Positions 30,592-53,515 are shown, numbered from the stretch's first letter. The stretch is DNA of 64,000 nucleotides from Pseudomonadota bacterium (GCA_014382245.1 JACNKC010000077.1:7395-71394); one strand, 5' to 3'. The notes: a model not told the origin generated them from the sequence alone. Made by a program: numbers and translations.

Positions 30592-30600
30592 TTATTTCAA

Positions 30601-30985: not shown

Positions 30986-31621
30986 AAAGCAGGTACGCGG
31001 CAGCAGCCATACTCGGAGGCATTGTCAGGCGATCCGGCAGCTGATGGCTACGTGCTGCTGGTGGATCAGAAGGGCCCACGTATTGTAGCCGACAACATTG
31101 CACTCACCAACGAACTTCGAATTGATCCGACCGGGCAGTACCTCTACCTTGCTGAGTCGATGGCGAGCCGTATCCTGCGATTTCCGATTCTGGAAGATGG
31201 AGGCCTCGGTGAGAGAGAGATTGCCGGCCCGGATGTGTTCGGCCCGGCTGACTGGCCAGACGGTATCGCATTCGATGCCGAAGGTAACCTCTGGATTACA
31301 TTTTTTACCACCAATGAATTGAAGATATTAACGCCCGGGGGTGACGTACATACGGTTTTCAGTGACCGGCAGACTGAGGCCGTTGAACTCGTGGCCAGGG
31401 AATTCGCTGCGAGAGACATGTCCATCCCGGACGTGTTTGCCTGTGCCGGTCCACGCGTCGGACTGTGCGCCAGCGTAAATTTTGGTGGCCCGGACCTGCG
31501 AGATGTCTACATCGGTTCGCTGGCCATGGACCGGGTACTCACGTTTCGCTCACCCGTTCCCGGTCATCCCATGCCGCATTGGAATCGGTATATTAATATG
31601 GAGAAAACCCCGGTGGCGTAA
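30986..31621 (+). pseudogene. 5'-truncated SMP-30/gluconolactonase/LRE-like gene fragment
   Basis: The C-terminal SGL motifs DGIAFDAEGNLWIT and GGPDLRDVYIGS are present, but the N-terminal roughly one-third of the family is missing. It is read in-frame with the IS3 orfA fragment as a single 304-aa chimeric ORF (30707-31621). Confidence 0.55.
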
Positions 31622-37798: not shown

Positions 37799-38476
37799 GT
37801 GGACGGGAAACCAGGCTTCTTGAAGGAGAATCCCGCGGCGCCGGGAAATCGCTTGCTGCCGACCGAGGGCCAGCTGCGGACCGGCCCCTTCGCGCGCGGG
37901 ACCGTACGCGAGGCTACACGGGAACGTATTCTTGAGGGCGCCATGAAAGCAGTGTCCAGCCACGGACTCTCCAAGCTAGAAATGACCGATGTCAGCGCCA
38001 GCGCCGGGGTTTCCCGGGGCACGCTGTACCGATACTTCTCGAACCGGGAGGAGTTGCTTCACAGCCTCACTATTCGCGAAGCCCAGGACTTCTGGAAGCG
38101 CTGCGTGGAGGCGCTGGAGGCCTGCGAGAGGGATGACGAGCGCCTGAAGTTGCTGATGCTTCACGCCACCCGCTACGTCAGTGACCACGCCGCCCTGCAA
38201 CGCTTACTTGAGACCGACCCGGCCTTTGTCCTTTGCTCGCTCAGGCAGAGTTTTACCTCGGTGCGCGACGAGCTGGGGAGACTGCTCGCGCCGGCCCTGG
38301 AGAACAGCGGGCCGGTAAAAGCAGGCGTTGTTTCGGTGGACCAGCTGGTGGATTGGCTGACACGCATTCTCGTCACCACTTACCTCTTTCCGATCGAAGA
38401 CAGCGCTGCCATGGAGAGCGCCATGGAGTCCATGCACGGCCTGCTGGTCGGGCTGAGAGGATCTGATGAAGCGTGA
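37799..38476 (+). CDS. TetR/AcrR family transcriptional regulator (head of the oxidative cluster)
   Basis: HTH ...GLSKLEMTDVSASAGVSRGTLYRYFSNREEL. The start may be downstream of 37799. Confidence 0.78.
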   Translation: MDGKPGFLKENPAAPGNRLLPTEGQLRTGPFARGTVREATRERILEGAMKAVSSHGLSKLEMTDVSASAGVSRGTLYRYFSNREELLHSLTIREAQDFWKRCVEALEACERDDERLKLLMLHATRYVSDHAALQRLLETDPAFVLCSLRQSFTSVRDELGRLLAPALENSGPVKAGVVSVDQLVDWLTRILVTTYLFPIEDSAAMESAMESMHGLLVGLRGSDEA

Positions 38477-39419
38477 CTTTCCTTTTCCGCTGCCGAACGG
38501 TTGGTTCCAGGTAGCGTGGTCGGACGAACTTGCTCGCGGTGAGCTCAAGCGACTGAAGTACTTCGGGAAAGAACTCGTGCTTTACCGTGGCGAAAACGGC
38601 AACGCGCACGCGCTTGACGCCTACTGCCCCCATCTCGGTGCCGACCTTGGTTGCGGGGGCAGGGTCGTGGGCAACAACCTCCGCTGCCCATTCCACCACT
38701 GGGAATTCGACGGTGACGGAGCATGTGTCGAGATACCTTACGCGAACAGGATTCCACCGAAAGCGTCGCTGAAATCCTGGCTGGTAGTAGAGAAAAACGG
38801 CATGATATACGCCCACTACCACCAGCAGGGAGAGGCTCCCGTCTTTGACGTACCCGACCTGCCCGAGTTTGGTGATGAGCAGTGGACCCCGTTTATCAAG
38901 CGGGACTTCATCGTCCGTAGCCGCAACCAGGAGCTGGCCGAGAACACCTGCGACCCGGCTCACTTCAAGTACGTGCACGGCACCGCCGGGCTGCCTACCG
39001 CCGAAGCCGATTTCGATGGCCCACTGCTCAAGGTCAAGCTGGACTACCCCATAGAAACCCGGAGCGGTGAGAAGCACGGTGAGGTTTCGATCTGCAGCTG
39101 GGGCTACGGCATAGGCATCACGCGCTTCACCGGCATAGTAGAAACTACCGTGTTCGTCGGCGGCACCCCGGTGGACGACGAATACGTCCACAATCGCATG
39201 TCTTTCACCCTCAAGAAACTGGACAGCGACGAAGCGACGAAGGCTGTGGGTGAAGCTTTTGTCAACGAGATCTCGCGGCAGTTCACCGAGGACATCCCGA
39301 TCTGGGAAAACAAGATTTACCTTGACCGTCCACTACTCTGCGACGGCGACGGCCCGATAGCCGTCATGCGCAGGTGGGGGCAGCAATTCTATTCGCCGTC
39401 GCCCGGGAGCTCCACGTGA
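38466..39419 (+). CDS. Rieske [2Fe-2S] non-heme iron oxygenase, alpha-subunit-like (KshA/phthalate-dioxygenase-like), copy 1
   Basis: Rieske site CPHLGADLG...CPFHHW (CxH-x17-CxxH). Mononuclear iron motif DPAHFKYVHG (D-x2-H-x4-H). Length 317 aa. Overlaps the TetR 3' end by 11 nt. Confidence 0.83.
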   Translation: MKRDFPFPLPNGWFQVAWSDELARGELKRLKYFGKELVLYRGENGNAHALDAYCPHLGADLGCGGRVVGNNLRCPFHHWEFDGDGACVEIPYANRIPPKASLKSWLVVEKNGMIYAHYHQQGEAPVFDVPDLPEFGDEQWTPFIKRDFIVRSRNQELAENTCDPAHFKYVHGTAGLPTAEADFDGPLLKVKLDYPIETRSGEKHGEVSICSWGYGIGITRFTGIVETTVFVGGTPVDDEYVHNRMSFTLKKLDSDEATKAVGEAFVNEISRQFTEDIPIWENKIYLDRPLLCDGDGPIAVMRRWGQQFYSPSPGSST

Positions 39420-40411
39420 GCAATGAAGACCGATGTTCTTCCCGCGGGCGTGATTCCAACAGGTACCCTTTTCCGGCTTATCCCAACGGCTGGTTTCGCG
39501 TCGCCTATTCGGACGAACTTCGTGCGGGACAGGTCCTATCGCTGGAGCTGTTCGGCACGCGGCTGGTGGCCTTCAGGACCGTGCAAGGAACCCCGTTCGT
39601 GCTGGACGCTTATTGCCCGCACATGGGAGCCGACATGGGGGTGGGCGGTCGCGTAGACGGTGAGGCCCTGCGCTGTCCTTTCCACGACTGGCTGTGGAGT
39701 GGCGACGGCCGTTGCCTGGAGGTCCCTTACGCCAGTCGTATCCCGGCCAGGGCCATGACCAGGGCCTTCGAGGTTGTCGAGAAAAACGGCATACTCATGG
39801 CCTGGTGGCACTCTGAAGGCGAAGCGCCGCAGTGGCAGGTGCCCGACGTGGACGCGTTCTCCTCGTCCGGATGGCGCGAGCCCGTAGTAAAACACTGGAA
39901 AGTAAACGCCCGCTGGCTGGACATGAACGAAAACTGCGTTGACCAGGCCCACTTTCGCTACATACACGGCACCCTGGCTATTCCCGCCACCCAGGCCTCT
40001 CATGACGGTCACGTCTTCAGGGCGGAGTCTCACATTCGCCAGAAAGCCCCGGGGGGAGAAGCCGAGGGCTGCCTGGTCACCGTCGACCACGGACCCGGAT
40101 TCCAGGTCGTCACCCTCGCCGGGCTTATCGATACAGTGCTCTTGAACACCGCCACCCCCATGGACGAGGAAACCACCGACGTCAGCTTCATGTACACGGT
40201 GAAAACCGAGGGGCACCCGCGTAAGGAAAAACTGGCCGCCGCGGTCGTCGATGACCTCGTAACCCAGTTCCACAACGACCTGCCCATATGGGAAAACAAG
40301 TCATACTGGAGCCGGCCTATGCTCTGCGACGGTGATGGCCCCATAGGCGAATACCGGGACTGGATGAAGCAATTCTTTACAGAAGCGCCGGGAAAGGAAA
40401 AAACGCCATGA
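39416..40411 (+). CDS. Rieske [2Fe-2S] non-heme iron oxygenase, copy 2 (tandem paralog)
   Basis: The N-terminus NRYPFPAYPNGWFRVAYSDE parallels copy 1. Motifs CPHMGADMG...CPFHDW and DQAHFRYIHG. The start GTG 39416 overlaps the upstream TGA (GTGA). Confidence 0.83.
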   Translation: MSNEDRCSSRGRDSNRYPFPAYPNGWFRVAYSDELRAGQVLSLELFGTRLVAFRTVQGTPFVLDAYCPHMGADMGVGGRVDGEALRCPFHDWLWSGDGRCLEVPYASRIPARAMTRAFEVVEKNGILMAWWHSEGEAPQWQVPDVDAFSSSGWREPVVKHWKVNARWLDMNENCVDQAHFRYIHGTLAIPATQASHDGHVFRAESHIRQKAPGGEAEGCLVTVDHGPGFQVVTLAGLIDTVLLNTATPMDEETTDVSFMYTVKTEGHPRKEKLAAAVVDDLVTQFHNDLPIWENKSYWSRPMLCDGDGPIGEYRDWMKQFFTEAPGKEKTP

Positions 40412-41526
40412 AAGATTACAAGGTCATTGACTGTGACCAGCACGTCATCGAACCGCCCGAGCTCTGGGAAGAGTGGCTGCCGAAGGAATTCGCGGACCGG
40501 GCGCCGCGCCTGGTCAAGGACGAGGACGGCGGGGACGCGTGGTTGCTCGGCGAGCACAAGGAGGCGATCGGCTTGGTAGCGGCCAAGGGTGTTTCGCCCA
40601 AGGATCTCAAGTGGACCGGCACCCGCTACGCCGATTTGCACCCTGGCATATTTCGCTCGGCCGAACGGCTCGAACTGATGGACGAGGACGGCATTGACGC
40701 GGCGGTTTTCTTTCCCCCCCAACGCACGATGATCTACTTCATGACGCTGAAAGACGCCGAATTCCATCTAGCGGGCATGCGCGCGTATAATGATTTTATA
40801 AGCGACTGGGTATCGGTAGACCGGAGCAGGCTCGGGGCTATCTGGCAGATGCCGGCAACGGGTGCCGACGACGCGGCAGCCGAGCTACGCCGGGCTGCCG
40901 CTGCCGGGGCCGTGGGTGTGGGGCTGGCTTCCTGGCCCAGTGGTGAAATGGTTCTCTCTGCTGCCGACGATCCGTTCTGGGCTGTCGCCGACGAACTGAA
41001 GATGCCGGTGCACGTCCACATCGGCCTCACGCCGGCGAGGCAACCGGTAAAGCGCGTTGCCGCACGCAAAGGTGGGGCCGCGCAGCTCGTCCTGTTGGCA
41101 GGCACGATGTCACGTATGCCCTTGATAATCGCCGAGATGATATTCAACGAAGTATTCGACCGTTTCCCGGGCCTGGTCATGGTCGGTGGGGAAGTCGGAG
41201 CGGGCTGGGTTCCTTACCTTCTCAGTGAAATGGATGACCGTTACCGGCGTAACCGTTACTGGTGCGATGTAAACCTGGAACTGGAGCCGAGCGAATACTT
41301 CCAGCGTAACTGGAAGGTGGGTTTCCTGAGGGATCCCTACGGCGTGCGCAACTGTCGCGACGTTGGTGTTGAAAACATGATGTGGTGCAGTGACTTCCCC
41401 CACCACATCAACGACTGGCCCAACTCCGGCCAACTTATAGCTGAAATGAGCAAAGGCGTAGACGCGGATGACGCCAGGAAGTTATTCTGCGAAAATGCAG
41501 GTCGGCTCTACGGCTTTACCACCTAG
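40408..41526 (+). CDS. amidohydrolase-2 family protein (ACMSD/LigW-like metal-dependent hydrolase/decarboxylase)
   Basis: MKDYKVIDCDQHVIEPPELW at the N-terminus and ...WCSDFPHH... at the C-terminus are typical of PF04909. The ATG overlaps the upstream stop (ATGA). Confidence 0.8.
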   Translation: MKDYKVIDCDQHVIEPPELWEEWLPKEFADRAPRLVKDEDGGDAWLLGEHKEAIGLVAAKGVSPKDLKWTGTRYADLHPGIFRSAERLELMDEDGIDAAVFFPPQRTMIYFMTLKDAEFHLAGMRAYNDFISDWVSVDRSRLGAIWQMPATGADDAAAELRRAAAAGAVGVGLASWPSGEMVLSAADDPFWAVADELKMPVHVHIGLTPARQPVKRVAARKGGAAQLVLLAGTMSRMPLIIAEMIFNEVFDRFPGLVMVGGEVGAGWVPYLLSEMDDRYRRNRYWCDVNLELEPSEYFQRNWKVGFLRDPYGVRNCRDVGVENMMWCSDFPHHINDWPNSGQLIAEMSKGVDADDARKLFCENAGRLYGFTT

Positions 41527-41554
41527 GCTCGATAGCAGAAGGATATACAGAAAA

Positions 41555-42763
41555 ATGGCTGGAAATGATTTCGATCCTGGCGAGCTGAGTCTTTTCGACC
41601 CGCGTTTCATAAGCGACCCCCACCCGGTGTACCGAAAGGTTCGCGCGCAATGCCCGGTGGCGGTCGACCCCTTTGCAGGCAACCCCATGCTGACGCGACA
41701 CGAAGACATCGCCGATGCCCTGCGCACGCCCGGTGTCTACTCCTCGGGTATGGACGCCACTGCGCTGGGCAACCAGCGCCCGCTGATCCCGCTGCAGGTC
41801 GACCCCCCGTTGCACACCGAATACCGTAAGCTGCTCGACCCCCGTTTTTCGCGGGCGCGCGTGCGCGAACTCGAAGGAGACGTCCGTCAGCTCGCCGGCC
41901 GCTTGGTCAATGACTTTGTTGAAAACGGACGTTGCGAATTCAACAGCGAATTCGCGATCCCGTTTCCCTGCTCCGTGTTCCTCGGCCTCATGGGGCTGCC
42001 CTTGGAAGATCTCGACACCTTCCTGGCGCTGAAAAACGGTATTATCAGGCCGCCGGCTACGGACCAGCAAGACGCCGAGGCAGCGCGTGAAAGAGCAGCC
42101 AGGAAGATAGACGATTACTTCACCCGCGCGCTGGCCAGGAAGAAAAAGAACCCCGGCGAAGATCTCATGAGTTGGTTCCTTGGCGCTGAGATCGAGGGAC
42201 GCAAGCTCACCCACGACGAGGTACTCGGGATTTGTTTTCTTTTCCTGCTGGGCGGCCTCGACACTGTCACGGCAACCCTGGGTTGCTCGGTTGAGTGGTT
42301 GGCGCGTAACCCGGTGGATCGCGCAAGGTTGGTCGCCGACCCGTCGCTGCTACCCGGGGCTGTTGACGAGTTGTTGCGTTTTCACACGCCGGTGGTCGGC
42401 GTAGCCAGGGTCCTGCGGCGGGGGGTTACCCTGGGCGGTCACGAGTACGAAGCGGGACAACCCATCACCCTGTTGCTGGGCTCAGCTAACACAGACAGCG
42501 ACGCCTTCAAGGAAGGCGACAGCGTAAAATTTGACCGGGAGCCCAATCCCCACCTGGCCTTCGGTGCCGGACCCCACCGTTGCCTGGGCTCCCACCTGGC
42601 TCGAATGGAATTAAAAATAGCTCTCGAAGAACTGCACAAGCGTATTCCCTCCTACGCTATAGCCGACGGCGAGAAGGTTCGCTTCGGCTTGGCCATTCGC
42701 GAAGTAGAATGCCTCCCGTTGGTGTTTCCTCCCGGAATCCGAACCCAGGCCGATGCGTCCTAG
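41555..42763 (+). CDS. cytochrome P450
   Basis: Heme-thiolate loop FGAGPHRCLGSHLARMELKIAL. I-helix and ExxR are present. An AAGGA SD precedes ATG 41555. Length 402 aa. Confidence 0.9.
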   Translation: MAGNDFDPGELSLFDPRFISDPHPVYRKVRAQCPVAVDPFAGNPMLTRHEDIADALRTPGVYSSGMDATALGNQRPLIPLQVDPPLHTEYRKLLDPRFSRARVRELEGDVRQLAGRLVNDFVENGRCEFNSEFAIPFPCSVFLGLMGLPLEDLDTFLALKNGIIRPPATDQQDAEAARERAARKIDDYFTRALARKKKNPGEDLMSWFLGAEIEGRKLTHDEVLGICFLFLLGGLDTVTATLGCSVEWLARNPVDRARLVADPSLLPGAVDELLRFHTPVVGVARVLRRGVTLGGHEYEAGQPITLLLGSANTDSDAFKEGDSVKFDREPNPHLAFGAGPHRCLGSHLARMELKIALEELHKRIPSYAIADGEKVRFGLAIREVECLPLVFPPGIRTQADAS

Positions 42764-44028
42764 TGCGGCTGTTGCTGGACCAAACCCGTTGCGTGGGGCA
42801 CGGCCGCTGCTACGAACTCGCGTCCGGCCTGTTCGGCGAAGACGATCGCGGGCACTGCGTGTTGCTGGCGAGCGAGGCCGACTGCGATGACGAGGGGGCC
42901 AGGAAAGCGATCGCCAATTGCCCCGAGGGCGCTATATCCATGGCCCAGGATGGTCACGCTGAAGCAGACACCTGGGACCTCTTCTGCGATCGCCTCAAGG
43001 AAGCCGGAAAGGTCATCAGCGAGGCTCGCGCGCCCGGCGACGAGCTGACAAGGGCCGAAGGATATCGATACTTGTCCCGACTGACCCGGCTCGCGCTTGA
43101 AAAACACCTTGAGCACGCCGATCCGGCAGCGCCGACTTTCTACAGTCTCAGCCACGAAACGGCCAAGATCGGCTGCGATAACCCGGATAGTTTTTACCAG
43201 AATGCCGTACTCGATGGGCAATTCGAATACCGAGTCAGCGGCACGCGCGGCACGGCCGCCTACCTGGGCATAGGCGCTTATTATGGCAACTACGGCAGCG
43301 ACGCGCCGTCCGGCTGCAGCGGCTATCTCGAAGGAGCGCAACTGGAATTGGATGAGCAGGGCGGTTTCGAGCTTTTACTGGGTGGCGAGAAGAAGCCTGG
43401 CAACTGGATCGCCTTGCGCCCGGACAGCTCAATGCTCATCGTCAGGCAGGTGTTCCTGGATCGGGTCAACGAGGCCGCGGGCAATCTGGCCATTGAGCGA
43501 ACCGGCGGCAATTCACCGCGCATGCTGGACATAACCGCGTTGGAAGATGGATTGGATGCCGCCGCGGCTTTTGTTAAAGGCACCGCGGTGATGTTTGCCG
43601 AGTGGGCCGAGGAGTTCGAACGCTGCCCCGGGGAGCTCATCGCCATGGACAGTGCCCGTACCGCGGGTGCCCACGGGGATCCAAACATTTCGTTTTACAT
43701 GGGCGCGTGGCAACTGGAAGAGGGCGAAGCGCTGCTGGTCGAGCTAGTCGCACCGCCTTGCCTGTACTGGAACTTCCAGTTGAACAATCACTGGATGGAG
43801 TCGCTCGATTACCGTTGGCAGCGCATCCACGTCAACTCGCATGATGCAGTAGAAGACTCGGACGGGGTAGTCCGGATCGTGATCAGCCCGAGCGACCCCG
43901 GTTTGCCTAACTACCTGCACACCAGCGGCCACGGTCACGGAACCATGGGTTTAAGGTGCATCAAGGGGCGAGCTCCGTTCTCGATCCAGACGAAACGCTG
44001 CCGTATTTCCGAGCTCGGGGGTGTTTAA
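42763..44028 (+). CDS. ferredoxin (3Fe-4S/4Fe-4S type) fused in-frame to a DUF1254/DUF1214 domain protein
   Basis: GTG 42763 overlaps the P450 TAG (TAGTG). The first roughly 65 aa, VRLLLDQTRCVGHGRCYELASGLFGEDDRG...DCDDEGARKAIANCPEGAI, match the C-x5-C...CP P450-partner ferredoxins. No stop precedes the roughly 350-aa DUF1254 (DNPDSFYQNAVLD) and DUF1214 (GNWIALRP...LIVRQVF; GLPNYLHTSGHG) part. Confidence 0.65.
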   Translation: MRLLLDQTRCVGHGRCYELASGLFGEDDRGHCVLLASEADCDDEGARKAIANCPEGAISMAQDGHAEADTWDLFCDRLKEAGKVISEARAPGDELTRAEGYRYLSRLTRLALEKHLEHADPAAPTFYSLSHETAKIGCDNPDSFYQNAVLDGQFEYRVSGTRGTAAYLGIGAYYGNYGSDAPSGCSGYLEGAQLELDEQGGFELLLGGEKKPGNWIALRPDSSMLIVRQVFLDRVNEAAGNLAIERTGGNSPRMLDITALEDGLDAAAAFVKGTAVMFAEWAEEFERCPGELIAMDSARTAGAHGDPNISFYMGAWQLEEGEALLVELVAPPCLYWNFQLNNHWMESLDYRWQRIHVNSHDAVEDSDGVVRIVISPSDPGLPNYLHTSGHGHGTMGLRCIKGRAPFSIQTKRCRISELGGV

Positions 44029-44112
44029 AAAACCCCTGACTTTACAGATGCTTATGGCCTTACTGGCGACTGACTACCTGACTTGTTAGTGCTGGCCACA
44101 GCCCGGGAGTTT

Positions 44113-45225
44113 TCAGTTCTCCTGCGAAAAACCCGTCCGTCCCTCACCGGGAGGCGCGAGGTCGAGAAGCCCGGCCAAAAGATTAGTGCAGGTATTATTC
44201 AGCTCGAAAGCGTAGCCAGCGGCTTCATCCATCAGCTCGTAGCGCACCAGTTGTTGAGAAATCCGCATCATGATCACCGAAAATCGAAAACCCGCAAACA
44301 CCTCCCAGTAGTGGAGGTCTCCCAGTTCTCTGCCCGCGCAGCGCTGGTAGTATTCAAGCGATTCTTCGTAGGAGCAGAAACCCTCGAGCCGCGGGGTAGA
44401 GATGCCCTCGCTGTGATGACGGTCCAGGAAGATACCCCAGGCCACGTCCTGCTCCGCGGTGCCGATGCAGGCCATCTCCCAGTCGAGTACGGCGGCGGGG
44501 CGACAATCGTCATCGAAAATAACGTTGCCGATACGGGCATCTCCCCAGGACACAACGGGGTGATCAACCGCTGGGGCGTTCTTTCGTAACCACTCACGGG
44601 CCACCTCCACTACTGGTTGCTCTCGGCCGCGCGAGGCCCAGTGAAAAAAATCATCGTAGTTGTCCAGCTGTGCCTGCAACACGTCCGATGAGCCAGCACC
44701 CGCGAGAAAATCGAAGCCCATGTTTTTCCAATCGAGACTGTGCACCCCGGCCATGCACTCAAAGCCCCCCAGCCATACCTGGTTGCGTTCTTTCGGCGAG
44801 AGTTCATGCAACCAGCCTTCGCTGTGGTAGGGCGGGTTATCACCAGGGACACGGCCTTTTACGTGTCGCATCACGTAAAACGGAGCGCCGAACACCGACT
44901 GGTCGTCGTTTTCGGTCCACAAGACCGACGGCACCGGCACCGGGCTATCGGCGAGCTTTTGCATACACAAATATTGCAGCGAGAGGTCGTAGTCCGGAAA
45001 CACAGTGAAGCCTTGTGGCTGAATGCGTACAACGCAGCTTTCACTCTGCCTGCCATCGTCCCAGGTGACATCGCAGAGCAGCGTGTCGTTCGAGAAGCCA
45101 GAAGAAGCGGGCGAAACGAGTTCACTCACTAACAGTTTTTGGGGGCGATCCAGCTTGCGATCCAGCCAGCCATAAAATTGCGCCCGGTCTCGGTCGAGAT
45201 CTCGCTGCCACATGGTCGGCATCGC
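44113..45225 (-). CDS. phosphotransferase family protein (APH/choline-kinase-like fold)
   Basis: Brenner/catalytic region ...VVSWGDARIGNVIFDDD...AVLDWEMACIGTAEQDVAW. The start is uncertain (ATG 45225 or 45216; ORF-track start 45276). Confidence 0.72.
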   Translation of the reverse strand, partial: AMPTMWQRDLDRDRAQFYGWLDRKLDRPQKLLVSELVSPASSGFSNDTLLCDVTWDDGRQSESCVVRIQPQGFTVFPDYDLSLQYLCMQKLADSPVPVPSVLWTENDDQSVFGAPFYVMRHVKGRVPGDNPPYHSEGWLHELSPKERNQVWLGGFECMAGVHSLDWKNMGFDFLAGAGSSDVLQAQLDNYDDFFHWASRGREQPVVEVAREWLRKNAPAVDHPVVSWGDARIGNVIFDDDCRPAAVLDWEMACIGTAEQDVAWGIFLDRHHSEGISTPRLEGFCSYEESLEYYQRCAGRELGDLHYWEVFAGFRFSVIMMRISQQLVRYELMDEAAGYAFELNNTCTNLLAGLLDLAPPGEGRTGFSQEN

Positions 45226-45235
45226 GGTAGCTTCC

Positions 45236-46039
45236 TCAGCGGTCCCAGGCGATGTTTTGACCCCACGAGGAGCCAAGCATCGCCGCCGGCGTGTTCTTGT
45301 TTATGTGGCCGATAAGGCCGCCGTAGATTCCGTATCCCACGAGTTCCTGCAAGCGCGGATCAAAGTCGCGCACCCTCTCCCGGGGAATGCCCAGTTGTTG
45401 GTTTTCCTGCTGCCGTATGTAGCCGGCACAATAGTTCATGGCGACCCCCAACCTGGCCCCATCGCTGGCGTTACGTCCACCACCGTGCCACATGGAACCG
45501 TTCCACAGCAACACGTCACCCCGCTTCATTTCCGCGGCAACGGTTTCAAGCGGGACGCCGTACTCCGGAACGTCCTCGCGCAGGTGAGAGCCCGGTATGA
45601 TACGAGTGGCCCCGTTCAGCTCGGTAAACTCGGTCAGTGCCCACATGGTGTTACAGACCAGGGCCGGGTGGGGACGCGCAATAGGAATGAGCTGGTCATC
45701 GGCGTGCAGGGGTTGGGCTAATTCACCGGGTAGTATTTTGATCGACGACAAGGACGACACCAGGCAGCCGCTGTCGAGGACGCCTTCAACGACAGGCAAC
45801 ACGGCTGGGTGTACTGGTATTTTCTCAAAAACCGGGTCAAGGGCCAGCAAGTTGTAGATTCTCAGCGTGTTGACACCTTCGAAATCGTTACCGGCGGGCT
45901 CGACAGATAATTCCTTCTCGAGGCGGCTGACGGCGGCTTCAATTTCGTCTATCAACCCTGGATCAACCGAGTCTTCAACAACGGTGTAACCCTGCTTTTC
46001 TACCCTCGCGAGGTGCGCAGCTATTTCGGTTTCGCTCAA
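45236..46039 (-). CDS. phytanoyl-CoA dioxygenase (PhyH) family Fe(II)/2-oxoglutarate oxygenase
   Basis: PhyH motifs ...PLHADDQ... (H-x-D), ...IIPGSHLRE... and ...GSMWHGGGRN. The proposed start TTG 46039 overlaps the TGA of the DIO-like gene (TTGA); GTG 46087 is an alternative. Confidence 0.75.
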   Translation of the reverse strand: MSETEIAAHLARVEKQGYTVVEDSVDPGLIDEIEAAVSRLEKELSVEPAGNDFEGVNTLRIYNLLALDPVFEKIPVHPAVLPVVEGVLDSGCLVSSLSSIKILPGELAQPLHADDQLIPIARPHPALVCNTMWALTEFTELNGATRIIPGSHLREDVPEYGVPLETVAAEMKRGDVLLWNGSMWHGGGRNASDGARLGVAMNYCAGYIRQQENQQLGIPRERVRDFDPRLQELVGYGIYGGLIGHINKNTPAAMLGSSWGQNIAWDR

Positions 46040-46785
46040 CTGGCCACTGCCTGTTCGCGAGAATAGGAGGAGATAGCCTCTTCCCACTCGGCCGGTAGGA
46101 AGAACATGGGACCGGGCCCGCTCTTGTAAACCACGCTACCGTCCAATCCGACCAGCGCCAGGCGTTCGGGAATCGCGTTCCACGCGTTCGATACGGCATT
46201 GTCCATGCCATCAACGAGGGCTGGCGGCTCAAGCGCGGTTTGTAACATGCACGCCTGGCCAGCGTCTATCCTCTGGTCGATGCTCGTGGGTTGGGTAAAA
46301 ACTACACCGTCTGCAAGGTTCTCGTCCACCTGCCAGCCATCGCTCGGGTGAATTTCCTTGATGTAAACAACGTAAAAATCGACCTGGTCTTTCCAGCGAC
46401 GGTAGATCTCGTTAACGGCACCAGCCTGGTACCGGAAGGGCGGTCAAGTGTAGCTGCCAAAAACGAGAGCGACCGGCCGTTTGCCGAAATGATCTGAGAG
46501 GGTGACCGCCGGACCGTCCTTGTCGTTGAGCCGAGCGAGAGTGAAGTCAGTCGCAGCCTGTCCGGCCTGCAGCGATCCCGGCTCGGCCGCCATGGATTCG
46601 GTCAGGTGCTGGGCCGACAGGGGATTCTCCATCGCCGCGGCCAAGCGCCCCCAGCCTTCTTCGCCCAGCTCTGCATCTACGGCCTTGAAATTGAGTCCCT
46701 GCTGTTCTGCCAGGGCCTGGACCAGTTCCCGAATTTTTGCTGTTTCCATGGGGCCTAATCTGAGACAGGGGTCGGCCTCTTGCAA
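46036..46785 (-). CDS. iodothyronine-deiodinase-like thioredoxin-fold selenoprotein (in-frame UGA = selenocysteine)
   Basis: Two same-frame ORFs (46444-46785 and 46036-46329) are separated only by TGA 46444-46446. Reading through gives ...KRPVALVFGSYT-U-PPFRYQAGAVNEIYRRWKDQVDFYVVYIKEIHPSDGWQV...VDGMDNAVSNAWNAIPERLALVGLDGSVVYKSGPGP..., collinear with the vertebrate deiodinase core (FGSxTUPPF; VYIxEAHPSDGW; DRMDN...YG; GGKGP). The start is TTG 46785 or ATG 46749. Confidence 0.72.
46416..46434 (-). other. candidate bacterial SECIS hairpin downstream of the UGA
   Basis: The mRNA reads UGA-CCGCCCUUC-[CGGUACC-AGGCU-GGUGCCG]. This is a 7-bp stem (one G-U pair) with a 5-nt loop, starting 10 nt after the UGA, within the positional window of bacterial SECIS elements. 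Confidence 0.4.
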
Positions 46786-46814
46786 GCAGAATCCCTGGCG
46801 GTGGCGCCGGCGCG

Positions 46815-47792
46815 TCAGGCTGTTTCAGCCTGGGCGCTGATGCCCGCTACAGTCAGACCTGCCTGCTCGAGCAAGCGGCGGTCAGCGCCGGTGTCGGGAT
46901 TACCGGTGGTCAGCAGTTTCTCGCCAAAGAAAATCGAATTTGCGCCCGCCATGAAGCACAACATCTGGGCTTCTTCTGAGAGGCGGCTGCGGCCTGCTGA
47001 CAGCCTGACCACTGAAGCCGGCATCAGCACCCTGGCGCAGGCCACCATGCGCACCAACTCCAACGCTTCCACCGGTTCGCGGTCGCCCAGGGGTGTGCCC
47101 TTTACCGGCACCAGCGCGTTGACCGGCACGCTCTCCGGGTGCCTGGGCAGGTTGGCCAGTTCGACCAGCATGGCGCAGCGATCGTTGATGCTTTCGCCCA
47201 TCCCGATTATGCCGCCGCAACACACGTTAATACCGGCTTCGCGAACGTGGGCTAGTGTTTCGAGTCGTTCATCAAAGTTGCGGGTCGTGATGATCTTGTC
47301 GTAGTACTCGCGGGAAGTGTCGATGTTGTGGTTGTATGACGTAAGTCCGGCATCCTTGAGCTCGCCCGCCTGCTCGGCGTTGATCATGCCCAGGGTCACG
47401 CAGCTCTCCATGCCGAGGGAGTTGACCCCACGCACCATGTCGAGGACCGAGTCGAACTGGCTGCCCGAACGTACGTCCCGCCACGCGGCCCCCATGCAGA
47501 AACGGGTTGCGCCGGCGTCCCTGGCCTCCGACGCCGAGGCCAGGACAGCCTCTACGTCGATCAGCGCCTCGTTCTCAACGTCGGCCTCGTAGTGAGCGCT
47601 CTGGGGACAGTAGGAACAGTCCTCGGGGCAACCGCCCGTCTTGATTGAAAGCAGCGAACAGAGCTGAACCTGCCTGGGGTCGTGGTGCTGGCGGTGTATG
47701 CCCTGGGCCAGGTAGAGCAGCTCGCTCAGGGGCGTGTCGTGGATCTCGCGGGCTTCGGCCACCGCCCAGTCGTGTCTAAGTCCTTCGGTCAT
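46815..47792 (-). CDS. bioB: biotin synthase
   Basis: Radical-SAM CPEDCSYC plus the BioB-specific C-terminal region. Length 325 aa. Confidence 0.93.
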
Positions 47793-47848
47793 CCTCCTTT
47801 TTTAGGCCGAGTCCCTCGCTGCTTCAAACCCACGAAGTGGGGGCGGGC

Positions 47849-49057
47849 TCAGCTGGGTGGGTGACCGGACAGCGTGATCACAGTGATTTCCCTTGGGGTC
47901 GCGATGCGTACCGGCTGCCCGGTCATCCCCAGGCCCCGGTTCACGTGCAGGCAGGACCCCTCGCTGTGGTAAGTACCGCGTGGGTACCTGGTCATAAAAC
48001 GCGCCAGGGATAACCGTACCCGCCCGGGCAGAGGCAGTGACAATTGCCCGCCATGGGTGTGGCCAGCCAGGACGAGATTCAAGCCAAGTTCGGCCGCCTG
48101 GGGAAACAAGTCGGGGCGATGCGCGAGAAGAATACTGGGCTCCCCGGCCGGCAGCGCGACTGCGAGTTCGCCGAGGACCGGGTCTTTTAACAGGCCCCTG
48201 GCCCAGTCCTTGCCACGATCGTCGAGACCAATCAGGTGCAGCCGGGCCCCGCCAACATCCACCACTGTGCCCCTGTCGCGCAACACCTCGAAGTCGGTCC
48301 AGGAGTGGAGGGCGGCCGTCACGGCATCGGCGCCGGTCGCTCGATCATGATTGCCCAGTATGGCGTAAACACCATGACGAGCGCGGAGATCGCCCAGTGC
48401 GGGAAATGTCTGCGGGGCATGTTGAAGGCCATCGGTGATGTCCCCGGTAATACACAGAAGGTCGGGTTCAAGAGCGTTTATGATCGAAACGTAACGGCTG
48501 ATGCGTTCAGCCGACATGAAGCGCCCGAGGTGGATATCACTCAGTTGCACCAGGCGCAGGCCCTCGAGATTCGTAGCGAGGTCGGGAACCGCGACCGATA
48601 TCTGGTTGATGTGCAGCTCGGCCTGCCCACGCGTGTACCCCCAGGCCATGGCCGCGAATACCGCGAGCAGTCCCGCGGTGGTGAGTTGCCGAGCGATTTC
48701 GTGTGCGCCGGGCGAAAGCGGCAGTGTGGGCGATGCTCCAAGCGCGTACAGCACAACACCGGTAAGGGAGCCTACGACCCACGCGAAAACGAGGAAGGAG
48801 GAAGCGAAGATTGAGCTGAACGCCAGCCCTGTCCAGGCTCGCTGTATCCGCGCAGTGATCTTACCGCGCGGCGAAAGAGACAGCAGCGACCGGTTAACTA
48901 AGAAAAAACTCAGCGGAGCAGCCAGGTGCACCAACCAACCGCCTGTGAATCGGGGACCGAACAACCACGAAATCAGCCACCAGGCACAAGCCCACTGCGA
49001 AAGAGCTACGAAACCCAGCAGTAGTGAAAAGAAATGTCTCCAGAAAAAGGAGACCAA
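47849..49057 (-). CDS. membrane-anchored metallophosphoesterase (calcineurin-like)
   Basis: N-terminal TM helices, then LVQLSDIHLG..., ...CITGDITD... and ...GNHD/GHTHGGQ phosphoesterase motifs. Confidence 0.8.
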   Translation of the reverse strand: MVSFFWRHFFSLLLGFVALSQWACAWWLISWLFGPRFTGGWLVHLAAPLSFFLVNRSLLSLSPRGKITARIQRAWTGLAFSSIFASSFLVFAWVVGSLTGVVLYALGASPTLPLSPGAHEIARQLTTAGLLAVFAAMAWGYTRGQAELHINQISVAVPDLATNLEGLRLVQLSDIHLGRFMSAERISRYVSIINALEPDLLCITGDITDGLQHAPQTFPALGDLRARHGVYAILGNHDRATGADAVTAALHSWTDFEVLRDRGTVVDVGGARLHLIGLDDRGKDWARGLLKDPVLGELAVALPAGEPSILLAHRPDLFPQAAELGLNLVLAGHTHGGQLSLPLPGRVRLSLARFMTRYPRGTYHSEGSCLHVNRGLGMTGQPVRIATPREITVITLSGHPPS

Positions 49058-49410: not shown

Positions 49411-50160
49411 TCAGGTGAACAGGTCGTCTTCGGGCGGCCGAAGGAGCTCAATGGCACTGCCGGCACCCAGTTCGGCGCCGCTACCTCGCACCAGTACGGC
49501 CGGCACTCCAGCATCCTTTTTCATGGCAATACCGGCTGCGGCAGCCAGCTGGTCGGCGACCGCGAGGGATGTGTGCTCGAGGGTTCTTCCCGTCCAGTCA
49601 CGGCCGCCCTCCCTGTTGTCGACGGGCAACAAGCCCGCGCAGCCTATGGCCAGGTCGATCTGCCCCAATCTCCAGGCGCGGCCGAAGGTATCCGAAATGA
49701 TCACGCCGACCTGCGCTTCGTAGTGGACAGCAAGCCGCGACATCAGTCGGAGCGCCGACTTGTCCGAATCTTCGGGCAGGAGGGTAGCGTCGCCCTCGAC
49801 GGCCTGGTTTGAGCAGTCAACGCCCGAGTTGGCGGCAACAAAGCCGGGACCGGTGCGAGTGATGAGATGCCCGTCCTTCTTGCGCAGGATTTGGCTCGCT
49901 TCGAGTAGCGCCAGCTCTACGACGGCCGGGTCCTTATCGTGCGCATTGGCAAACTCAAGGGCCTCGTCCGAGGGCTCGACCTCGGACAGCTTGCGTACCC
50001 TTCCTTCGGCCCGTGACACGACCTTCTGGCATACGACCAGGACGTCGCCGGATTTTACGCCGACCTTCTGCTTGTCGATAGCATCGATGAGCAAGGCGGC
50101 GAGATCGTTCCCAGGCAGGACCATGGGGACGCCTTCGATGGGTATCAACATGGTTACCAT
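49411..50160 (-). CDS. cofE: coenzyme F420-0:L-glutamate ligase
   Basis: 249 aa. ...GVKSGDVLVVCQKVVSRAEGR..., ...VAANSGVDCSN... and ...IISDTFGRAWRLGQIDLAIGCAGL match the F420_ligase family (PF01996). Confidence 0.8.
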   Translation of the reverse strand: MVTMLIPIEGVPMVLPGNDLAALLIDAIDKQKVGVKSGDVLVVCQKVVSRAEGRVRKLSEVEPSDEALEFANAHDKDPAVVELALLEASQILRKKDGHLITRTGPGFVAANSGVDCSNQAVEGDATLLPEDSDKSALRLMSRLAVHYEAQVGVIISDTFGRAWRLGQIDLAIGCAGLLPVDNREGGRDWTGRTLEHTSLAVADQLAAAAGIAMKKDAGVPAVLVRGSGAELGAGSAIELLRPPEDDLFT

Positions 50161-50161
50161 T

Positions 50162-51130
50162 TCAGCGTTCCGTCCCGCCGAGCGGTATCTTCAAGAGAAA
50201 CCGCGCGAGTGCCAGCGAACGCCGCTTACTATTCAGCAGGGTGTTGCGCTCAAGCAGGCGGGGCCAGGTGGCTTCAGGCCGCCGTGGTGCGTCCCCGGGC
50301 GAAACGACCAGCGACGTCGCGAGGCCCTCGTAAAAGTCTGCTATGCCAGCGCTTCCTCGACCCGCACCAAGGCTTTTCATCATAGCGACCAAGGGGCCCT
50401 TCACCGCCCGACCATTGACCAGTGGACTGACCGCAATGGTCTTGCGGCACACGGCCCCCAGCGCTGCGCGTAGACCCGGAATCGCAAGCATGGGCGCAAT
50501 GCTTACGTAGGGGTTGCTGGGAGCGATTATTACCTTGTCGGCCGATGCCAGGGCCTCGCTGACCCCGGGCGCCATGCTGGCCCCGGACGCGCCCTTGTAA
50601 GTGATGCCGTCCACCCTCGGGCGGGCGCCTTGCTTGACGAACCACTCCTGGAAGGCAAAACGGCGTCTACCCGACCTGAGCACGGTACGCACCGGGTCGT
50701 TGCTCATGGGCAATACCGAGGTCCGAATACCCAGTTGTGTGCAGATTCGCCGGGTAGCCTGGGCAAGAGAGGAGCCCTCTCTCAACAAGTGGCTACGGTA
50801 AATGTGAAGGGCGAGGTCCTGGTCGCCAAGCGAGAACCATTGGTCACCGAAATAACGACCCAGCCAGGGCAGGGCGTTCCGGGTATCGCCGCGTATACCC
50901 CAGCCCCTCTTGATCGGGGCAAGCCCGGCCAGTGTGTACGCCACCGTGTCGAGGTCCGGAGATACCTGCAGTCCATAAAAACTCTCGTCGTCTCCCGTGT
51001 TGACGATCACGGTCAACCTGCGGGGATCAACGACTTCAGCGAGTCCCCTAAGGAGTCGGCAGGCTCCCACTCCACCCGCCAGCAGGGTGATTCGTGGGTT
51101 GGCCGGCAAGGCGTCCATCATCGCTTTCAT
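50162..51130 (-). CDS. cofD: 2-phospho-L-lactate transferase (LPPG:FO transferase)
   Basis: ...ITLLAGGVGACRLLRGL...VIVNTGDD... matches the CofD/UPF0052 N-terminal motif. The annotated start overlaps the cofH 3' end by about 80 nt; the real start is unresolved. Confidence 0.78.
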   Translation of the reverse strand: MKAMMDALPANPRITLLAGGVGACRLLRGLAEVVDPRRLTVIVNTGDDESFYGLQVSPDLDTVAYTLAGLAPIKRGWGIRGDTRNALPWLGRYFGDQWFSLGDQDLALHIYRSHLLREGSSLAQATRRICTQLGIRTSVLPMSNDPVRTVLRSGRRRFAFQEWFVKQGARPRVDGITYKGASGASMAPGVSEALASADKVIIAPSNPYVSIAPMLAIPGLRAALGAVCRKTIAVSPLVNGRAVKGPLVAMMKSLGAGRGSAGIADFYEGLATSLVVSPGDAPRRPEATWPRLLERNTLLNSKRRSLALARFLLKIPLGGTER

Positions 51131-52304
51131 CCAACAGCTCGTACAGGGTGTTCCGTTGCCGGGGTTCTCTACCCCGCGACATGATCATGCTCCTGAGTTC
51201 ATCGGCCGAAGTGTACTCTCCTGAATCCGCACCCGCTTCGCGCGAGATGCTCTCTTCCATCAGGGTGCCGCCAACATCATTGCAACCCGCGTCGAGACTC
51301 AGGGTTGCCAACTCGCGACCGAGCTTGACCCAGGAACTCTGCAGGTTATCAACCAGCCCGTCCAGCATCAGTCGGCTGGTTGCGTACACGGCTATGTCGA
51401 GACGCCCCTGTGGCACCGGGGATACCAGGCCCTCGGCGTAAAGCTGGGTGTTCTGCCAGATAAAACGCAAGGGTACGAACTCGCTGAGTCCACCGGTGTT
51501 GCGCTGGATGCCGCGCAGTACCTCGATGTGTTCGGCCATGTGCCGCGGTGTTTCCAAGTGGCCGTAGAGCATGGTGGAGGTCGTAGGCAAACCCACCTCG
51601 TGGGCGGTGGTCACGATCTCTATCCAGCTGTCGGTGTCGAGCTTGTCGTGGGTAAGGACCTTGCGGATCTCCGGGTCAAAAATTTCCGCGGCGGTACCGG
51701 GCATGGTATTCAACCCCGCTTCGAGGAGTAGCTCGAGATACGGCCGGTAGGCCAGGTTCATTCGATGGGCGCCGTACTGGATCTCCATCGGCGAAAACGC
51801 GTGAATATGAAGGTCGGGGTAGGCCCCGCGCACCGCTCGGAGCAGTTGCAGGTAGCCGTCGTCGGGCATAACCGGGTTGAGTCCACCCTGCATGCATACC
51901 TCGGTAGCTCCCAGCGCCACGCCCTCGCCGATACGGTGGAGAACGTCAGAGACATCGCGGTCGTAAGCCCGGGGACTGTTCTTGAGGTGGGCGAAGGAGC
52001 AGAACTTGCAGCCCACGAAACAAACGTTAGTCCAGTTCACGTTGCGGTTGATGACATAGGTCACCGTATCGCCTACCGCGCGCCGCCTCAGCTCGTCGGC
52101 GACTCCCACGAGGGCGGCCAGCGAATCGCCTTGCAAAGCAAACAGCTCGCTAGCCTCGTCTACGGTCGGCGCTCGGCCGGCCAGCGAACGCTCGAGGATG
52201 GCCGCCAGGCCGGGCGGAGTGGCCGCCAGGCGGTTTTCGAGATCCCGCTGGTCCGCAAAGAGGTACTCGACTCTCTCGGGTGACTGTTCGGTCTGGTAAC
52301 TCAC
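51048..52304 (-). CDS. cofH: FO synthase subunit 2 (7,8-didemethyl-8-hydroxy-5-deazariboflavin synthase), radical SAM
   Basis: CFVGCKFC radical-SAM cluster motif and the CofH-type C-terminal domain. It is a gene separate from cofG. Confidence 0.83.
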   Translation of the reverse strand: MSYQTEQSPERVEYLFADQRDLENRLAATPPGLAAILERSLAGRAPTVDEASELFALQGDSLAALVGVADELRRRAVGDTVTYVINRNVNWTNVCFVGCKFCSFAHLKNSPRAYDRDVSDVLHRIGEGVALGATEVCMQGGLNPVMPDDGYLQLLRAVRGAYPDLHIHAFSPMEIQYGAHRMNLAYRPYLELLLEAGLNTMPGTAAEIFDPEIRKVLTHDKLDTDSWIEIVTTAHEVGLPTTSTMLYGHLETPRHMAEHIEVLRGIQRNTGGLSEFVPLRFIWQNTQLYAEGLVSPVPQGRLDIAVYATSRLMLDGLVDNLQSSWVKLGRELATLSLDAGCNDVGGTLMEESISREAGADSGEYTSADELRSMIMSRGREPRQRNTLYELLDESDDGRLAGQPTNHPAGGWSGSLPTP

Positions 52305-53515
52305 AGGGTTGCACCCCCCTGGGCCGTGATCGCCGCGGGCAGCTCCGCAAAGCGTTCAACCGCCAATCGCATGTCAGGATCCAGGAACTCGTCGTTCACG
52401 TACTCAGGATAAACCGGCAAGCGGGGCTCGAGTTCGAAACCCAGCCCGGAACAGGTCTGCGCCAGGTCTTCTAGATGAGGCCAGGGGTCGCCGGGGTTAA
52501 CGTAGTCCGCGGTCACCGGAGAGATGCCACCCCAATCGTTTATACCGGCATTAACCAGGCGCGCGTGCCCCTGGGGGCTGAGGTTGGGCGGTGCCTGGAT
52601 GTTCATAGCTGGTCCCAGGATCAGGCGGGCGATCGCCACGCAGCGTATGAACTCGTCTTCTGTCGGTTCCGGAAATCCGCTCATCGGCGTGGAGTCCTTG
52701 TGCCTGAAGTTCTGTATGATGACTTCCTGCAGGTGACCGTACTGCTCGTGTAATCGGCGCAATTCGAGGAGGCTCGCGATTCTTTCAGCCTCGGTTTCAC
52801 CAATGCCCACGAGGATGCCGCTGGTGAAGGGTATCCGGAGCTCGCCCGCGTCGGCGATCATGCTGACCCTTGCCGCCGGATCCTTGTCGGGCGCAAACTG
52901 GTGAGGCATTCCTCGTGCGCGCAAACGGGGGCTGACATTCTCGAGCATCAAGCCGAAGCTCACGTTCAGCGGTCGCAGGTTGCGCATCTCATCGTGCGAG
53001 AGCAGCCCCGCGTTGGTGTGCGGCAGCAGATCTGCTTCGAGGGCCAGCGAGCAGGCAAGGCCCACGTACTCGGCCGTGCTCGCGGCTCCCCATCGTTCGA
53101 GCTCGGCACTGAACCCGCGAAAAGCGATCTCGGGTTTGTCGCCAAGGCACATGAGGGCTTCTATGCAGCCGGCTGCTTTACCCCGTTCAGACCACTGGCG
53201 GATCTCGTCAGGGGTCATGGTCCATTCGCCTGCCTCGCCGGGATCCCGGCGAAAGGTGCAGTACGTACACCTGTCCCGGCATAGATTGGTCACAGGGAGA
53301 AAGACCTTCGGGGACCAGGTGAGCACTCGGTCCCGATCGCGGTCGCGCTGCCGGCAGGCCAGCTCACAGATTTCTGCGGTCAGGGACCACTCGCGGTCGC
53401 CGTCAGCACTCCCGCGGGGACTGCCAGCGTGCAGAAGGGCATAAGCATCGTCGTCGCCCAGGCGCTCAAAAGCGCGGGCCCTGGCGAGCGCCCTGTCTAG
53501 AGGATTACCGACCAT
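52301..53515 (-). CDS. cofG: FO synthase subunit 1, radical SAM
   Basis: Motifs ...VFLPVTNLCRDRCTYCTF... The start overlaps the cofH start region by 4 nt. Confidence 0.83.
   Translation of the reverse strand: MVGNPLDRALARARAFERLGDDDAYALLHAGSPRGSADGDREWSLTAEICELACRQRDRDRDRVLTWSPKVFLPVTNLCRDRCTYCTFRRDPGEAGEWTMTPDEIRQWSERGKAAGCIEALMCLGDKPEIAFRGFSAELERWGAASTAEYVGLACSLALEADLLPHTNAGLLSHDEMRNLRPLNVSFGLMLENVSPRLRARGMPHQFAPDKDPAARVSMIADAGELRIPFTSGILVGIGETEAERIASLLELRRLHEQYGHLQEVIIQNFRHKDSTPMSGFPEPTEDEFIRCVAIARLILGPAMNIQAPPNLSPQGHARLVNAGINDWGGISPVTADYVNPGDPWPHLEDLAQTCSGLGFELEPRLPVYPEYVNDEFLDPDMRLAVERFAELPAAITAQGGATL

Follow-up and report, generated by a model that had tools for sequence, protein, structure and literature searches.

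A deiodinase-like selenoprotein gene in a run of four co-directional genes from a marine Candidatus Binatota genome, and the gene neighbourhoods of its relatives

We analysed a 64,000-nucleotide stretch of DNA (the window) that is deposited under the name Pseudomonadota bacterium (GCA_014382245.1, JACNKC010000077.1:7395-71394). Its minus strand carries, at positions 44113-47792, four consecutive co-directional genes: bioB, a gene for a deiodinase-like (DIO-like) selenoprotein, a gene for a PhyH-family dioxygenase and a gene for an APH-fold kinase. These gene families had been named in an earlier interpretation made from the DNA alone (the sequence-only reading), and profile searches with Pfam and TIGR00433 confirmed the assignment for all four genes. 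Proteins identical to those of the window occur in metagenome-assembled genomes (MAGs) labelled Proteobacteria, Deltaproteobacteria or Candidatus Binatota (MBC8293161, MBC8293162, MBC8293165). The source of the window is a marine Candidatus Binatota MAG, and the locus was also found in 18 metagenome contigs. The features of the locus, in the direction of transcription and all on the minus strand, are as follows.

46815..47792, minus strand: bioB, biotin synthase, 325 amino acids (aa), Pfam Radical_SAM and BATS, TIGR00433
46750..46814, minus strand: intergenic region between bioB and the DIO-like gene, 65 nt, delimited by alignment with relatives and holding the conserved block TGCTTGCAAGAGGCC
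46036..46749, minus strand: deiodinase-like selenoprotein gene, 237 aa with selenocysteine (Sec) at residue 102, PF00837, a single in-frame TGA
46444..46446, minus strand: UGA selenocysteine codon, residue 102, aligned with the Cys of homologues
46416..46434, minus strand: hairpin of the bacterial selenocysteine insertion sequence (SECIS) type, 8-bp stem and GGC apical loop, the stem beginning 9 nt after the UGA
46036..46039, minus strand: TTGA, in which the TTG start of PhyH and the TGA stop of the DIO-like gene overlap, as seen in the sequence itself
45236..46039, minus strand: PhyH-family Fe(II)/2-oxoglutarate dioxygenase, 267 aa, PF05721
45231..45237, minus strand: GAGGAAG, the ribosome-binding site of the kinase gene, which shares bases with the PhyH stop and precedes the ATG by 8 nt
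44113..45222, minus strand: APH-fold kinase of the Rv3168-like subfamily, 369 aa, PF01636

The DIO-like protein scores 94.6 bits on the Pfam profile PF00837 (T4_deiodinase, cutoff 27) and matches the catalytic domain of mouse Dio3 (4tr3) with an E-value of 1e-20. It stays below the cutoff of the NCBIfam model NF038285, 'deiodinase family protein' (174 bits vs 250), and since only positions 131-340 of the 347 in that model are matched, the N-terminal part of that architecture is missing. The N-terminus is instead a hydrophilic extension of about 60 aa. A membrane segment is unlikely because the maximum 19-residue hydropathy is 0.78, and the protein appears to be soluble.

The in-frame TGA lies in the active-site motif FGSYT-U-PPFR, whose aligned counterpart in homologues is FGSYTCPPFR. 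A number of homologue entries begin just past this Sec/Cys position; L082, at 57% identity the closest of the Sec-type relatives, shares the TGA, and the late start of its entry reflects a gene split at that codon. Two distant relatives, P0006 and P0007, carry W (FGSYTWPPFR) and R (FGSYTRPPFR) in this column, and translation of a Sec TGA under an alternative genetic code may account for the W. As regards the window, bioB, the DIO-like gene, the PhyH gene and the kinase gene all end in TGA, and a reassigned code is unlikely because TGA serves as a stop in these four genes.

Bacterial SECIS elements have been described as hairpins that follow closely on the UGA and have a G in their small apical loop (PMC1088965), and the hairpin at 46416-46434, with its 8-bp stem and GGC loop, has this form. 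It is the centroid structure of the fold in the window. The stability of the 65-nt fold around the UGA is no better than that of shuffled sequence (z = 0.30), so the support for the hairpin comes from covariation and not from energy. To collect Sec-type sequences, a degenerate DNA pattern for FGSYT-TGA-PPF was run against metagenomes and gave at least 120 stretches, 80 of which were kept as loci. The hairpin is found at the same position in most of the 85 Sec-type DIO-like sequences that were folded. Covariation was assessed on an ungapped alignment of 82 distinct Sec-type sequences, using a 7-bp core and 500 shuffles: the core is paired in 75.4% of cells (55.8% in shuffles), has 97 double-change cells (43 in shuffles), and reaches a covariation score of 0.441 (0.176 in shuffles). 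None of the 500 shuffles attained the observed pairing and covariation values, and register 0 beats every slid register.

Comparison with sister lineages whose DNA has diverged by about 12% points the same way. Neither the TGA nor the surrounding 50 nt or so has changed, even at synonymous sites, and in the DIO-like gene the ratio of nonsynonymous to synonymous polymorphism (pN/pS) amounts to 0.24-0.35 ahead of the TGA and to 0.18-0.19 beyond it. Since this ratio is low on both sides, the two halves are constrained as one protein. With the alignment to Cys, the covarying SECIS hairpin and purifying selection past the TGA, the proposal that the gene encodes a selenoprotein is upheld; judging from these sequence comparisons, the TGA at 46444-46446 is a genuine selenocysteine codon. 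A search of 43500-48500 against Rfam found no SECIS or other RNA family, the sole match being a chance one with an E-value of 4.4.

Public gene calls split the selenoprotein gene (46036-46785 in the window, 8438-9187 in contig L083) into hypothetical open reading frames (ORFs) of 113 or 101 aa and of 97 aa. The NCBI numbering has two entries between the PhyH protein (MBC8293162) and the BioB protein (MBC8293165), which suggests that the annotation of the deposited MAG misses the selenoprotein.

If the four genes formed a conserved unit, their homologues would be expected to lie together in other genomes, and the sequence-only reading had named a lack of such conservation as grounds for rejecting its proposal. 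We therefore assembled 162 DIO-like loci, comprising 80 Cys-type loci from genomes, the 80 Sec-type metagenomic loci, and the loci of the closest relatives, L081 and L082. The genome pattern scan needed a Cys codon and thus recovered Cys-type homologues only, for which the TGA pattern used with the metagenomes compensates. The Cys-type loci, mainly from MAGs labelled Acidobacteriota, Opitutaceae or Planctomycetota, were inspected for up to 8 kb per side, with neighbour homologues accepted at an E-value of 1e-5 or better.

No homologue of the PhyH gene, the kinase gene or bioB lies within 8 kb in any of the 80 Cys-type loci, and a PhyH, APH or bioB neighbour is likewise absent from all 80 Sec-type loci. 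In L081, whose DIO-like protein is 52% identical to that of the window, luciferase-like and Rieske genes are found upstream and a DUF218 gene downstream; in L082, an MFS transporter gene comes next, and overlaps the DIO-like stop codon. Altogether, none of the 162 DIO-like loci has PhyH, APH or bioB as a neighbour, which by the criterion of the sequence-only reading largely refutes its proposal of a pathway. The suggestion in that reading that bioB might simply be a neighbour was right.

The other two genes gave a similar picture. Orthologues of the PhyH protein (64-67% identical) were found in four unrelated contexts, one of them in a Binatia genome, one in an Acidimicrobiales genome and two on further long contigs, and three of the four have no kinase gene. 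The remaining context (L220:5338-8050) has a PhyH orthologue that is 67% identical, with a divergent Cys-type glutathione-peroxidase gene upstream and an APH-fold gene 112 nt downstream; an acyl-CoA dehydrogenase gene follows two genes further. The APH-fold protein of L220 has no significant similarity to the window kinase. Homologues of the window kinase (57-59% identical) lie in three contexts, all unrelated, and neither a PhyH nor a DIO-like gene is near any of them. The upstream neighbours of two of these homologues (L092 and L094) were examined as a potential conserved partner and rejected, as they are unrelated to each other. Nowhere did the same combination of genes recur in independent lineages, as a conserved gene cluster would.

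DIO-like loci of the two large sets (L001-L080 and L100-L179; for example L016, L025, L033 and L073) have recurring neighbours of their own. Genes for TPR proteins are found at 31 loci, for multihaem cytochrome c at 29, and for an FG-GAP/ASPIC-type protein at 38, while 50 loci encode a large protein, perhaps a TonB-dependent receptor. By record title the retrieved loci are mostly from Acidobacteriota MAGs, and this branch of DIO-like proteins may have an extracytoplasmic role. One 281-kb metagenome contig (L155) has two Sec-type DIO-like genes in opposite orientation, at 1595-1621 (minus strand) and 3230-3256 (plus strand), 1.6 kb apart.

A sister lineage, seen in at least 23 contigs, shows what has become of the four genes in a closer relative. 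Its DNA is 87-90% identical to that of the window and its kinase about 92% identical. It carries bioB, the DIO-like gene with the TGA kept, and the kinase gene, and is collinear with the window from cofD to the DIO-like stop and again from the kinase ATG on, with the PhyH gene gone. The intervening 40-90 nt hold the first ~20 codons of PhyH, reading NEALLAEHTTRLKEQGYMALE after the TTG, and the last few bases before the PhyH stop are also kept; ahead of the remnant stands TTGA in contig L099 and TTTGA in L095. Because both 5′ and 3′ remnants persist, the PhyH gene must have been present in the common ancestor and was then lost from the sister lineage by an internal deletion. The kinase has a pN/pS of 0.10-0.12 against the sister lineages, and so the DIO-like gene and the kinase gene stay under purifying selection without PhyH. 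We infer that PhyH is a dispensable accessory oxygenase.

Further segments are missing from the sister lineage (L095, L099): window positions 41521-42966, with a P450 gene and the ferredoxin domain fused to a DUF1214 protein, and approximately 38447-40400, with both KshA-like Rieske oxygenase genes. The losses of PhyH, P450/ferredoxin and Rieske genes are three separate insertion or deletion events, all oxygenase-related, with the flanking genes kept. The oxygenase content of the locus is therefore variable. The DUF1214-like gene lies at 42766-44028 on the plus strand, convergent with the kinase gene; its product has 421 aa in public gene calls, and a 4Fe-4S ferredoxin domain is fused to it at the N-terminus. 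The gene's start shares 1 nt with the P450 stop, and the sister version has 357 aa and lacks the ferredoxin domain.

The sequence-only reading drew its conclusion from the junctions between the genes, of which one was described correctly and two were not. The overlap of the DIO-like TGA with the PhyH TTG, as TTGA, is present in the sequence, and public gene calls use the same PhyH start. The 29-nt gap given between bioB and the DIO-like gene depends on a TTG start at 46785 that is not conserved. The frame from this TTG to the ATG at 46749, which is kept in all lineages aligned, contains a TAG or TAA in the close relatives L084 and L099. Because these stops interrupt the reading from the TTG, the gap is 65 nt. 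Finally, in place of a PhyH/kinase overlap of 10-14 nt there is a gap of 13 nt, between the PhyH stop (45236-45238) and the kinase ATG (45220-45222), together with the ribosome-binding site listed above. A kinase start at TTG 45276 was rejected, given that the homologues listed have 355-382 aa, in agreement with the 369-aa form, and that the sister lineage diverges upstream of the ATG. A PhyH start at GTG 46087 was rejected on homologue lengths and coverage: public gene calls on identical contigs give the same 267-aa protein, and homologues of 262-286 aa cover 94-100% of it.

Close spacing is the norm in this region and not unusual. In an identical 21-kb contig (L083), 7 of 17 same-strand junctions overlap by 1-32 nt, three of them by 4 nt. 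Scans with consensus patterns, which may be ill-suited to this phylum, found no promoter-like sites and no terminator-like sites in the intergenic gaps; the three terminator-like sites detected, against 4.1 expected by chance, all lie inside coding sequence. Within the spacer between bioB and the DIO-like gene, the block TGCTTGCAAGAGGCC (46772-46786) is fully conserved across lineages that differ elsewhere in the spacer, and it might be a promoter or an operator. The palindrome CTTGCAAG lies within this block. The window holds no significant excess of it (3 matches vs 0.93 expected, a number reached by 8 of 100 shuffles), and its interpretation as a regulator site was abandoned for this reason. 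A -35/-10 pair (TTGCAA, 17 nt, CAGATT) that would serve a leaderless start at ATG 46749 fails the scan criteria, and was discarded as unsupported speculation.

The remaining window is chromosomal housekeeping DNA, with pnp, purBCQLF, metH, ahcY, icd, cofGHDE, lipB and meaB. The bioB product scores 392.5 bits on TIGR00433 (cutoff 225), which identifies it as the BioB equivalog, and an identical protein is annotated as BioB (MBC8293165.1). Directly upstream of the bioB run and in the same orientation is a complete F420 biosynthesis set (49411-53515, minus strand), consisting of two radical-SAM CofG/CofH genes, cofD and cofE, which is itself preceded by a sigma-54 two-component pair. Elsewhere, just after a tRNA-Leu gene (30505-30591), an ORF at 30505-31621 combines an N-terminal HTH_Tnp_1 transposase match with a match to SMP-30/gluconolactonase. 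It could be an insertion-sequence remnant that is fused to, or misjoined with, a neighbouring gene.

The PhyH protein scores 109 bits on PF05721 (cutoff 22), and the residues of its iron triad, His112, Asp114 and His185, are invariant in 12 orthologues, as is Arg196. The orthogroup is very conserved, with 61-67% identity across Binatia, Acidimicrobiales and Limnocylindrales. An ectoine hydroxylase is ruled out by the TIGR02408 score (23.3 bits vs a cutoff of 336.5). A tblastn search of plasmids returned only paralogues with at most 43% identity, which for that reason could not inform on the context of orthologues, and a scan of viral contigs with the PhyH alignment gave no matches. The kinase scores 81.8 bits on PF01636 (cutoff 23.2). 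Its matches in the PDB are 9fsg (E-value 1e-49), 3ats, which is Rv3168 (1e-43), and the kinase domain of ACAD11 (2e-16). An APH(3′) aminoglycoside-resistance enzyme is ruled out by the NCBIfam equivalog, on which it has 23.7 bits vs 205 required. The orthogroups to which the PhyH protein and the kinase belong are both large and uncharacterised.

We consider it likely, with a probability of roughly three in four, that the four genes are a lineage-specific chromosomal run, closely spaced and co-directional, of a marine Candidatus Binatota MAG and not a conserved pathway. Since other genomes do not keep these neighbours together, the four genes mark no new three-enzyme pathway; their combination is a local accident of synteny. 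The claim that the packing implies a co-translated trio of selenoenzyme, hydroxylase and kinase is not supported, given a neighbourhood that is not conserved and a PhyH gene that is deleted in the sister lineage.

Read as such a run, the genes may form the end of a co-transcribed array that comprises cofGH, cofD, cofE, a metallophosphoesterase gene, bioB, and the DIO-like, PhyH and kinase genes. Beyond bioB and the 65-nt spacer lies the gene for a soluble DIO-like protein of the thioredoxin/peroxiredoxin fold, with the UGA-encoded Sec102 of its active site directed by the SECIS element. Translation of PhyH is predicted to be coupled, probably, to termination on the DIO-like gene, which is plausible because of the TTGA overlap and because the TTG start lacks a clear ribosome-binding site. 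Through this coupling, the yield of PhyH may depend on the success of Sec insertion. The kinase gene, 13 nt further on, has a ribosome-binding site of its own, and the three enzymes would act on separate substrates. For the DIO-like protein, the selenolate and its Ser-Thr-Tyr-Glu-His network would most likely belong to a redox enzyme or a dehalogenase acting on a non-thyronine substrate. This is plausible because the catalytic residues are kept, the positions of the substrate clamp and of Dio3 His219 are Pro, and there is no membrane anchor (see below). The presence of PhyH would vary together with that of other oxygenase genes at the locus.

Several points weigh against this interpretation. 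Many of the 162 loci are short, with about 104 having at least 1.5 kb and 85 at least 3 kb downstream, and the contexts of the other genes amount to four for PhyH and three for the kinase. The order of thioredoxin-fold enzyme, PhyH and kinase in L220 loosely parallels the trio of the window, as a single case with a non-homologous kinase. In addition, selA, selB, selD and tRNA-Sec were not found within the 64-kb window, where the sole AIRS-domain match is PurL.

An alternative is that PhyH belongs functionally with the convergent oxygenase cluster of the other strand (TetR, two KshA-like Rieske oxygenases, an amidohydrolase, P450 and ferredoxin-DUF1214), and not with its same-strand neighbours. 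The sister lineage without PhyH is also without P450, the ferredoxin domain and both Rieske genes while keeping their flanks, and because these are absent jointly, the four oxygenase-related genes vary together. However, this is a single contrast of presence and absence between two lineages, the losses are three separate deletion or insertion events and no single block, and PhyH orthologues elsewhere are not beside P450 or KshA-like genes. We regard this alternative as unlikely.

Somewhat less probable still is that PhyH and the kinase alone are paired, the former hydroxylating a substrate and the latter phosphorylating the new hydroxyl, with the DIO-like gene incidental. The two genes are 13 nt apart, an APH-fold gene is immediately downstream of the PhyH orthologue at one of the four loci (L220), and the kinase homologue in L092 follows a gene with weak, sub-threshold similarity to a di-iron oxygenase. 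APH-fold genes are said to be abundant in such genomes, so that the single adjacency could be due to chance. Moreover, the lack of significant similarity between the L220 protein and the window kinase, the lack of relationship between the upstream neighbours of the L092 and L094 kinase homologues, and the strong constraint on the kinase where PhyH is deleted all speak against a pairing.

The proposal that all three enzymes form one co-translated pathway on a shared, perhaps halogenated phenolic, substrate draws on the TTGA overlap and the kinase gene 13 nt later, on the PhyH remnants, which place the gene order already in the common ancestor of two Binatota lineages, and on the loosely parallel glutathione peroxidase, PhyH and APH-fold genes of L220. 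We nevertheless find it very unlikely. Neither partner accompanies any of the 162 DIO-like genes, neither PhyH nor a DIO-like gene is found in the three kinase contexts, and three of the four PhyH contexts have no kinase at all; furthermore, PhyH was deleted in a successful sister lineage in which the DIO-like gene (pN/pS 0.18-0.35) and the kinase gene (0.10-0.12) remain constrained, and the L220 APH-fold gene is unrelated to the window kinase. A more specific scenario, to which we give equally little credence, would make the soluble DIO-like selenoproteins with an N-terminal extension, a subfamily of marine Binatota and a few relatives, cytoplasmic reductive dehalogenases for marine organohalogens. 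PhyH, coupled through the TTGA overlap, would then be selenium-dependent in its expression, since a ribosome terminating at UGA-102 would not get as far as the coupled start, and the kinase would process the hydroxylated product, with the sister lineage later abandoning the route. If true, this would be a lineage-specific three-step route.

A reading of the TGA as a real stop, with the DIO-like gene as a split pseudogene, as the public annotation implies, fits the split gene calls, the lack of Sec machinery in the window and the lack of an Rfam SECIS match, but it is most improbable, because the TGA coincides precisely with the catalytic Cys/Sec residue, a further 135 codons remain open under constraint (pN/pS 0.18-0.19), neither the TGA nor the hairpin varies between lineages, covariation of the hairpin is seen among 82 homologues, and the family of bacterial selenoproteins is a documented one (PMC1088965, PMC13188914).

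Returning to the lineage-specific run, we compared its members with characterised proteins. The kinase shares the APH fold with Rv3168-like kinases (3ats, 9fsg) and, more distantly, with the kinase domain of ACAD10 and ACAD11, but unlike the latter two it has no fused or adjacent acyl-CoA dehydrogenase domain. For 9FSG, a literature search found no description of function. The nearest solved structures to the PhyH protein are the fungal meroterpenoid enzymes AndA, SptF and PrhA, which have the PhyH fold in common with it and whose His-x-Asp...His iron ligands and 2-oxoglutarate arginine it keeps. Characterised PhyH enzymes match it with E-values of only 1e-22 to 1e-17, and it belongs to a separate conserved bacterial orthogroup.

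Bacterial deiodinase-like selenoproteins, with Sec and Cys forms and a bacterial SECIS element, were described in the selenoproteome of the Sargasso Sea (Zhang, Fomenko and Gladyshev 2005, PMC1088965), and a 2026 review lists them with their function still unknown (PMC13188914). The window protein resembles them in its PF00837 domain, in having Sec at the Cys position, and in a SECIS element with G in a small loop; both Sec and Cys forms occur in the family, and the function is presumed to be redox. It differs in being soluble, with its hydrophilic N-terminal extension of about 60 aa, whereas the distant relatives P0003, P0006, P0007, P0009 and P0023 start with a hydrophobic N-terminal segment. 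Only two relatives with more than 50% identity were found, P0001 and L082. The motif in the window protein is U-P-P-F, as in animal deiodinases, while the example given in the review is U-x-x-C (PMC13188914). The host phylum, Binatota, is mentioned in neither of these publications. The gene is thus an addition to a family known since 2005, within a rare soluble subfamily. Its overall significance is modest, with no new pathway revealed; it adds a clearly supported Sec-type deiodinase-like gene with its SECIS element to Candidatus Binatota, and it illustrates a recurring error of automated gene calling, in which a selenoprotein gene is split into two hypothetical ORFs in public annotation.

The window protein was also compared with the animal deiodinases Dio1-3 (4tr3, 9h48; PMC11592359). 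The FGSxT-U-PPF motif and the deiodinase-specific insertion are shared, and Dio3 residues Ser167, Thr169, Sec170, Tyr197, Glu200, His202 and Trp207 correspond to Ser99, Thr101, Sec102, Tyr129, Glu132, His134 and Trp139 of the window protein. The proton relay of the deiodinase consists of Ser, Thr, Tyr, Glu, His and a second His, which is His219 in Dio3 (PMC11592359). Five of these six residues are kept (Ser99, Thr101, Tyr129, Glu132 and His134), and the position of His219 is Pro154, yet it is His in the two closest relatives. In contrast, the residue that clamps the carboxylate of the substrate (Arg275 in Dio3, Lys241 in Dio2) is replaced by Pro212, and the N-terminal membrane anchor of the animal enzymes is absent. 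The route to selenocysteine also differs, being specified by a 3′-UTR element in animals and by a bacterial SECIS element inside the coding sequence in the window. Thyronines are not expected to be substrates of the DIO-like protein. The soluble subfamily thus retains most of the catalytic network of the animal deiodinases without their thyronine clamp, and could be a convenient model for the function of bacterial deiodinase-like proteins.

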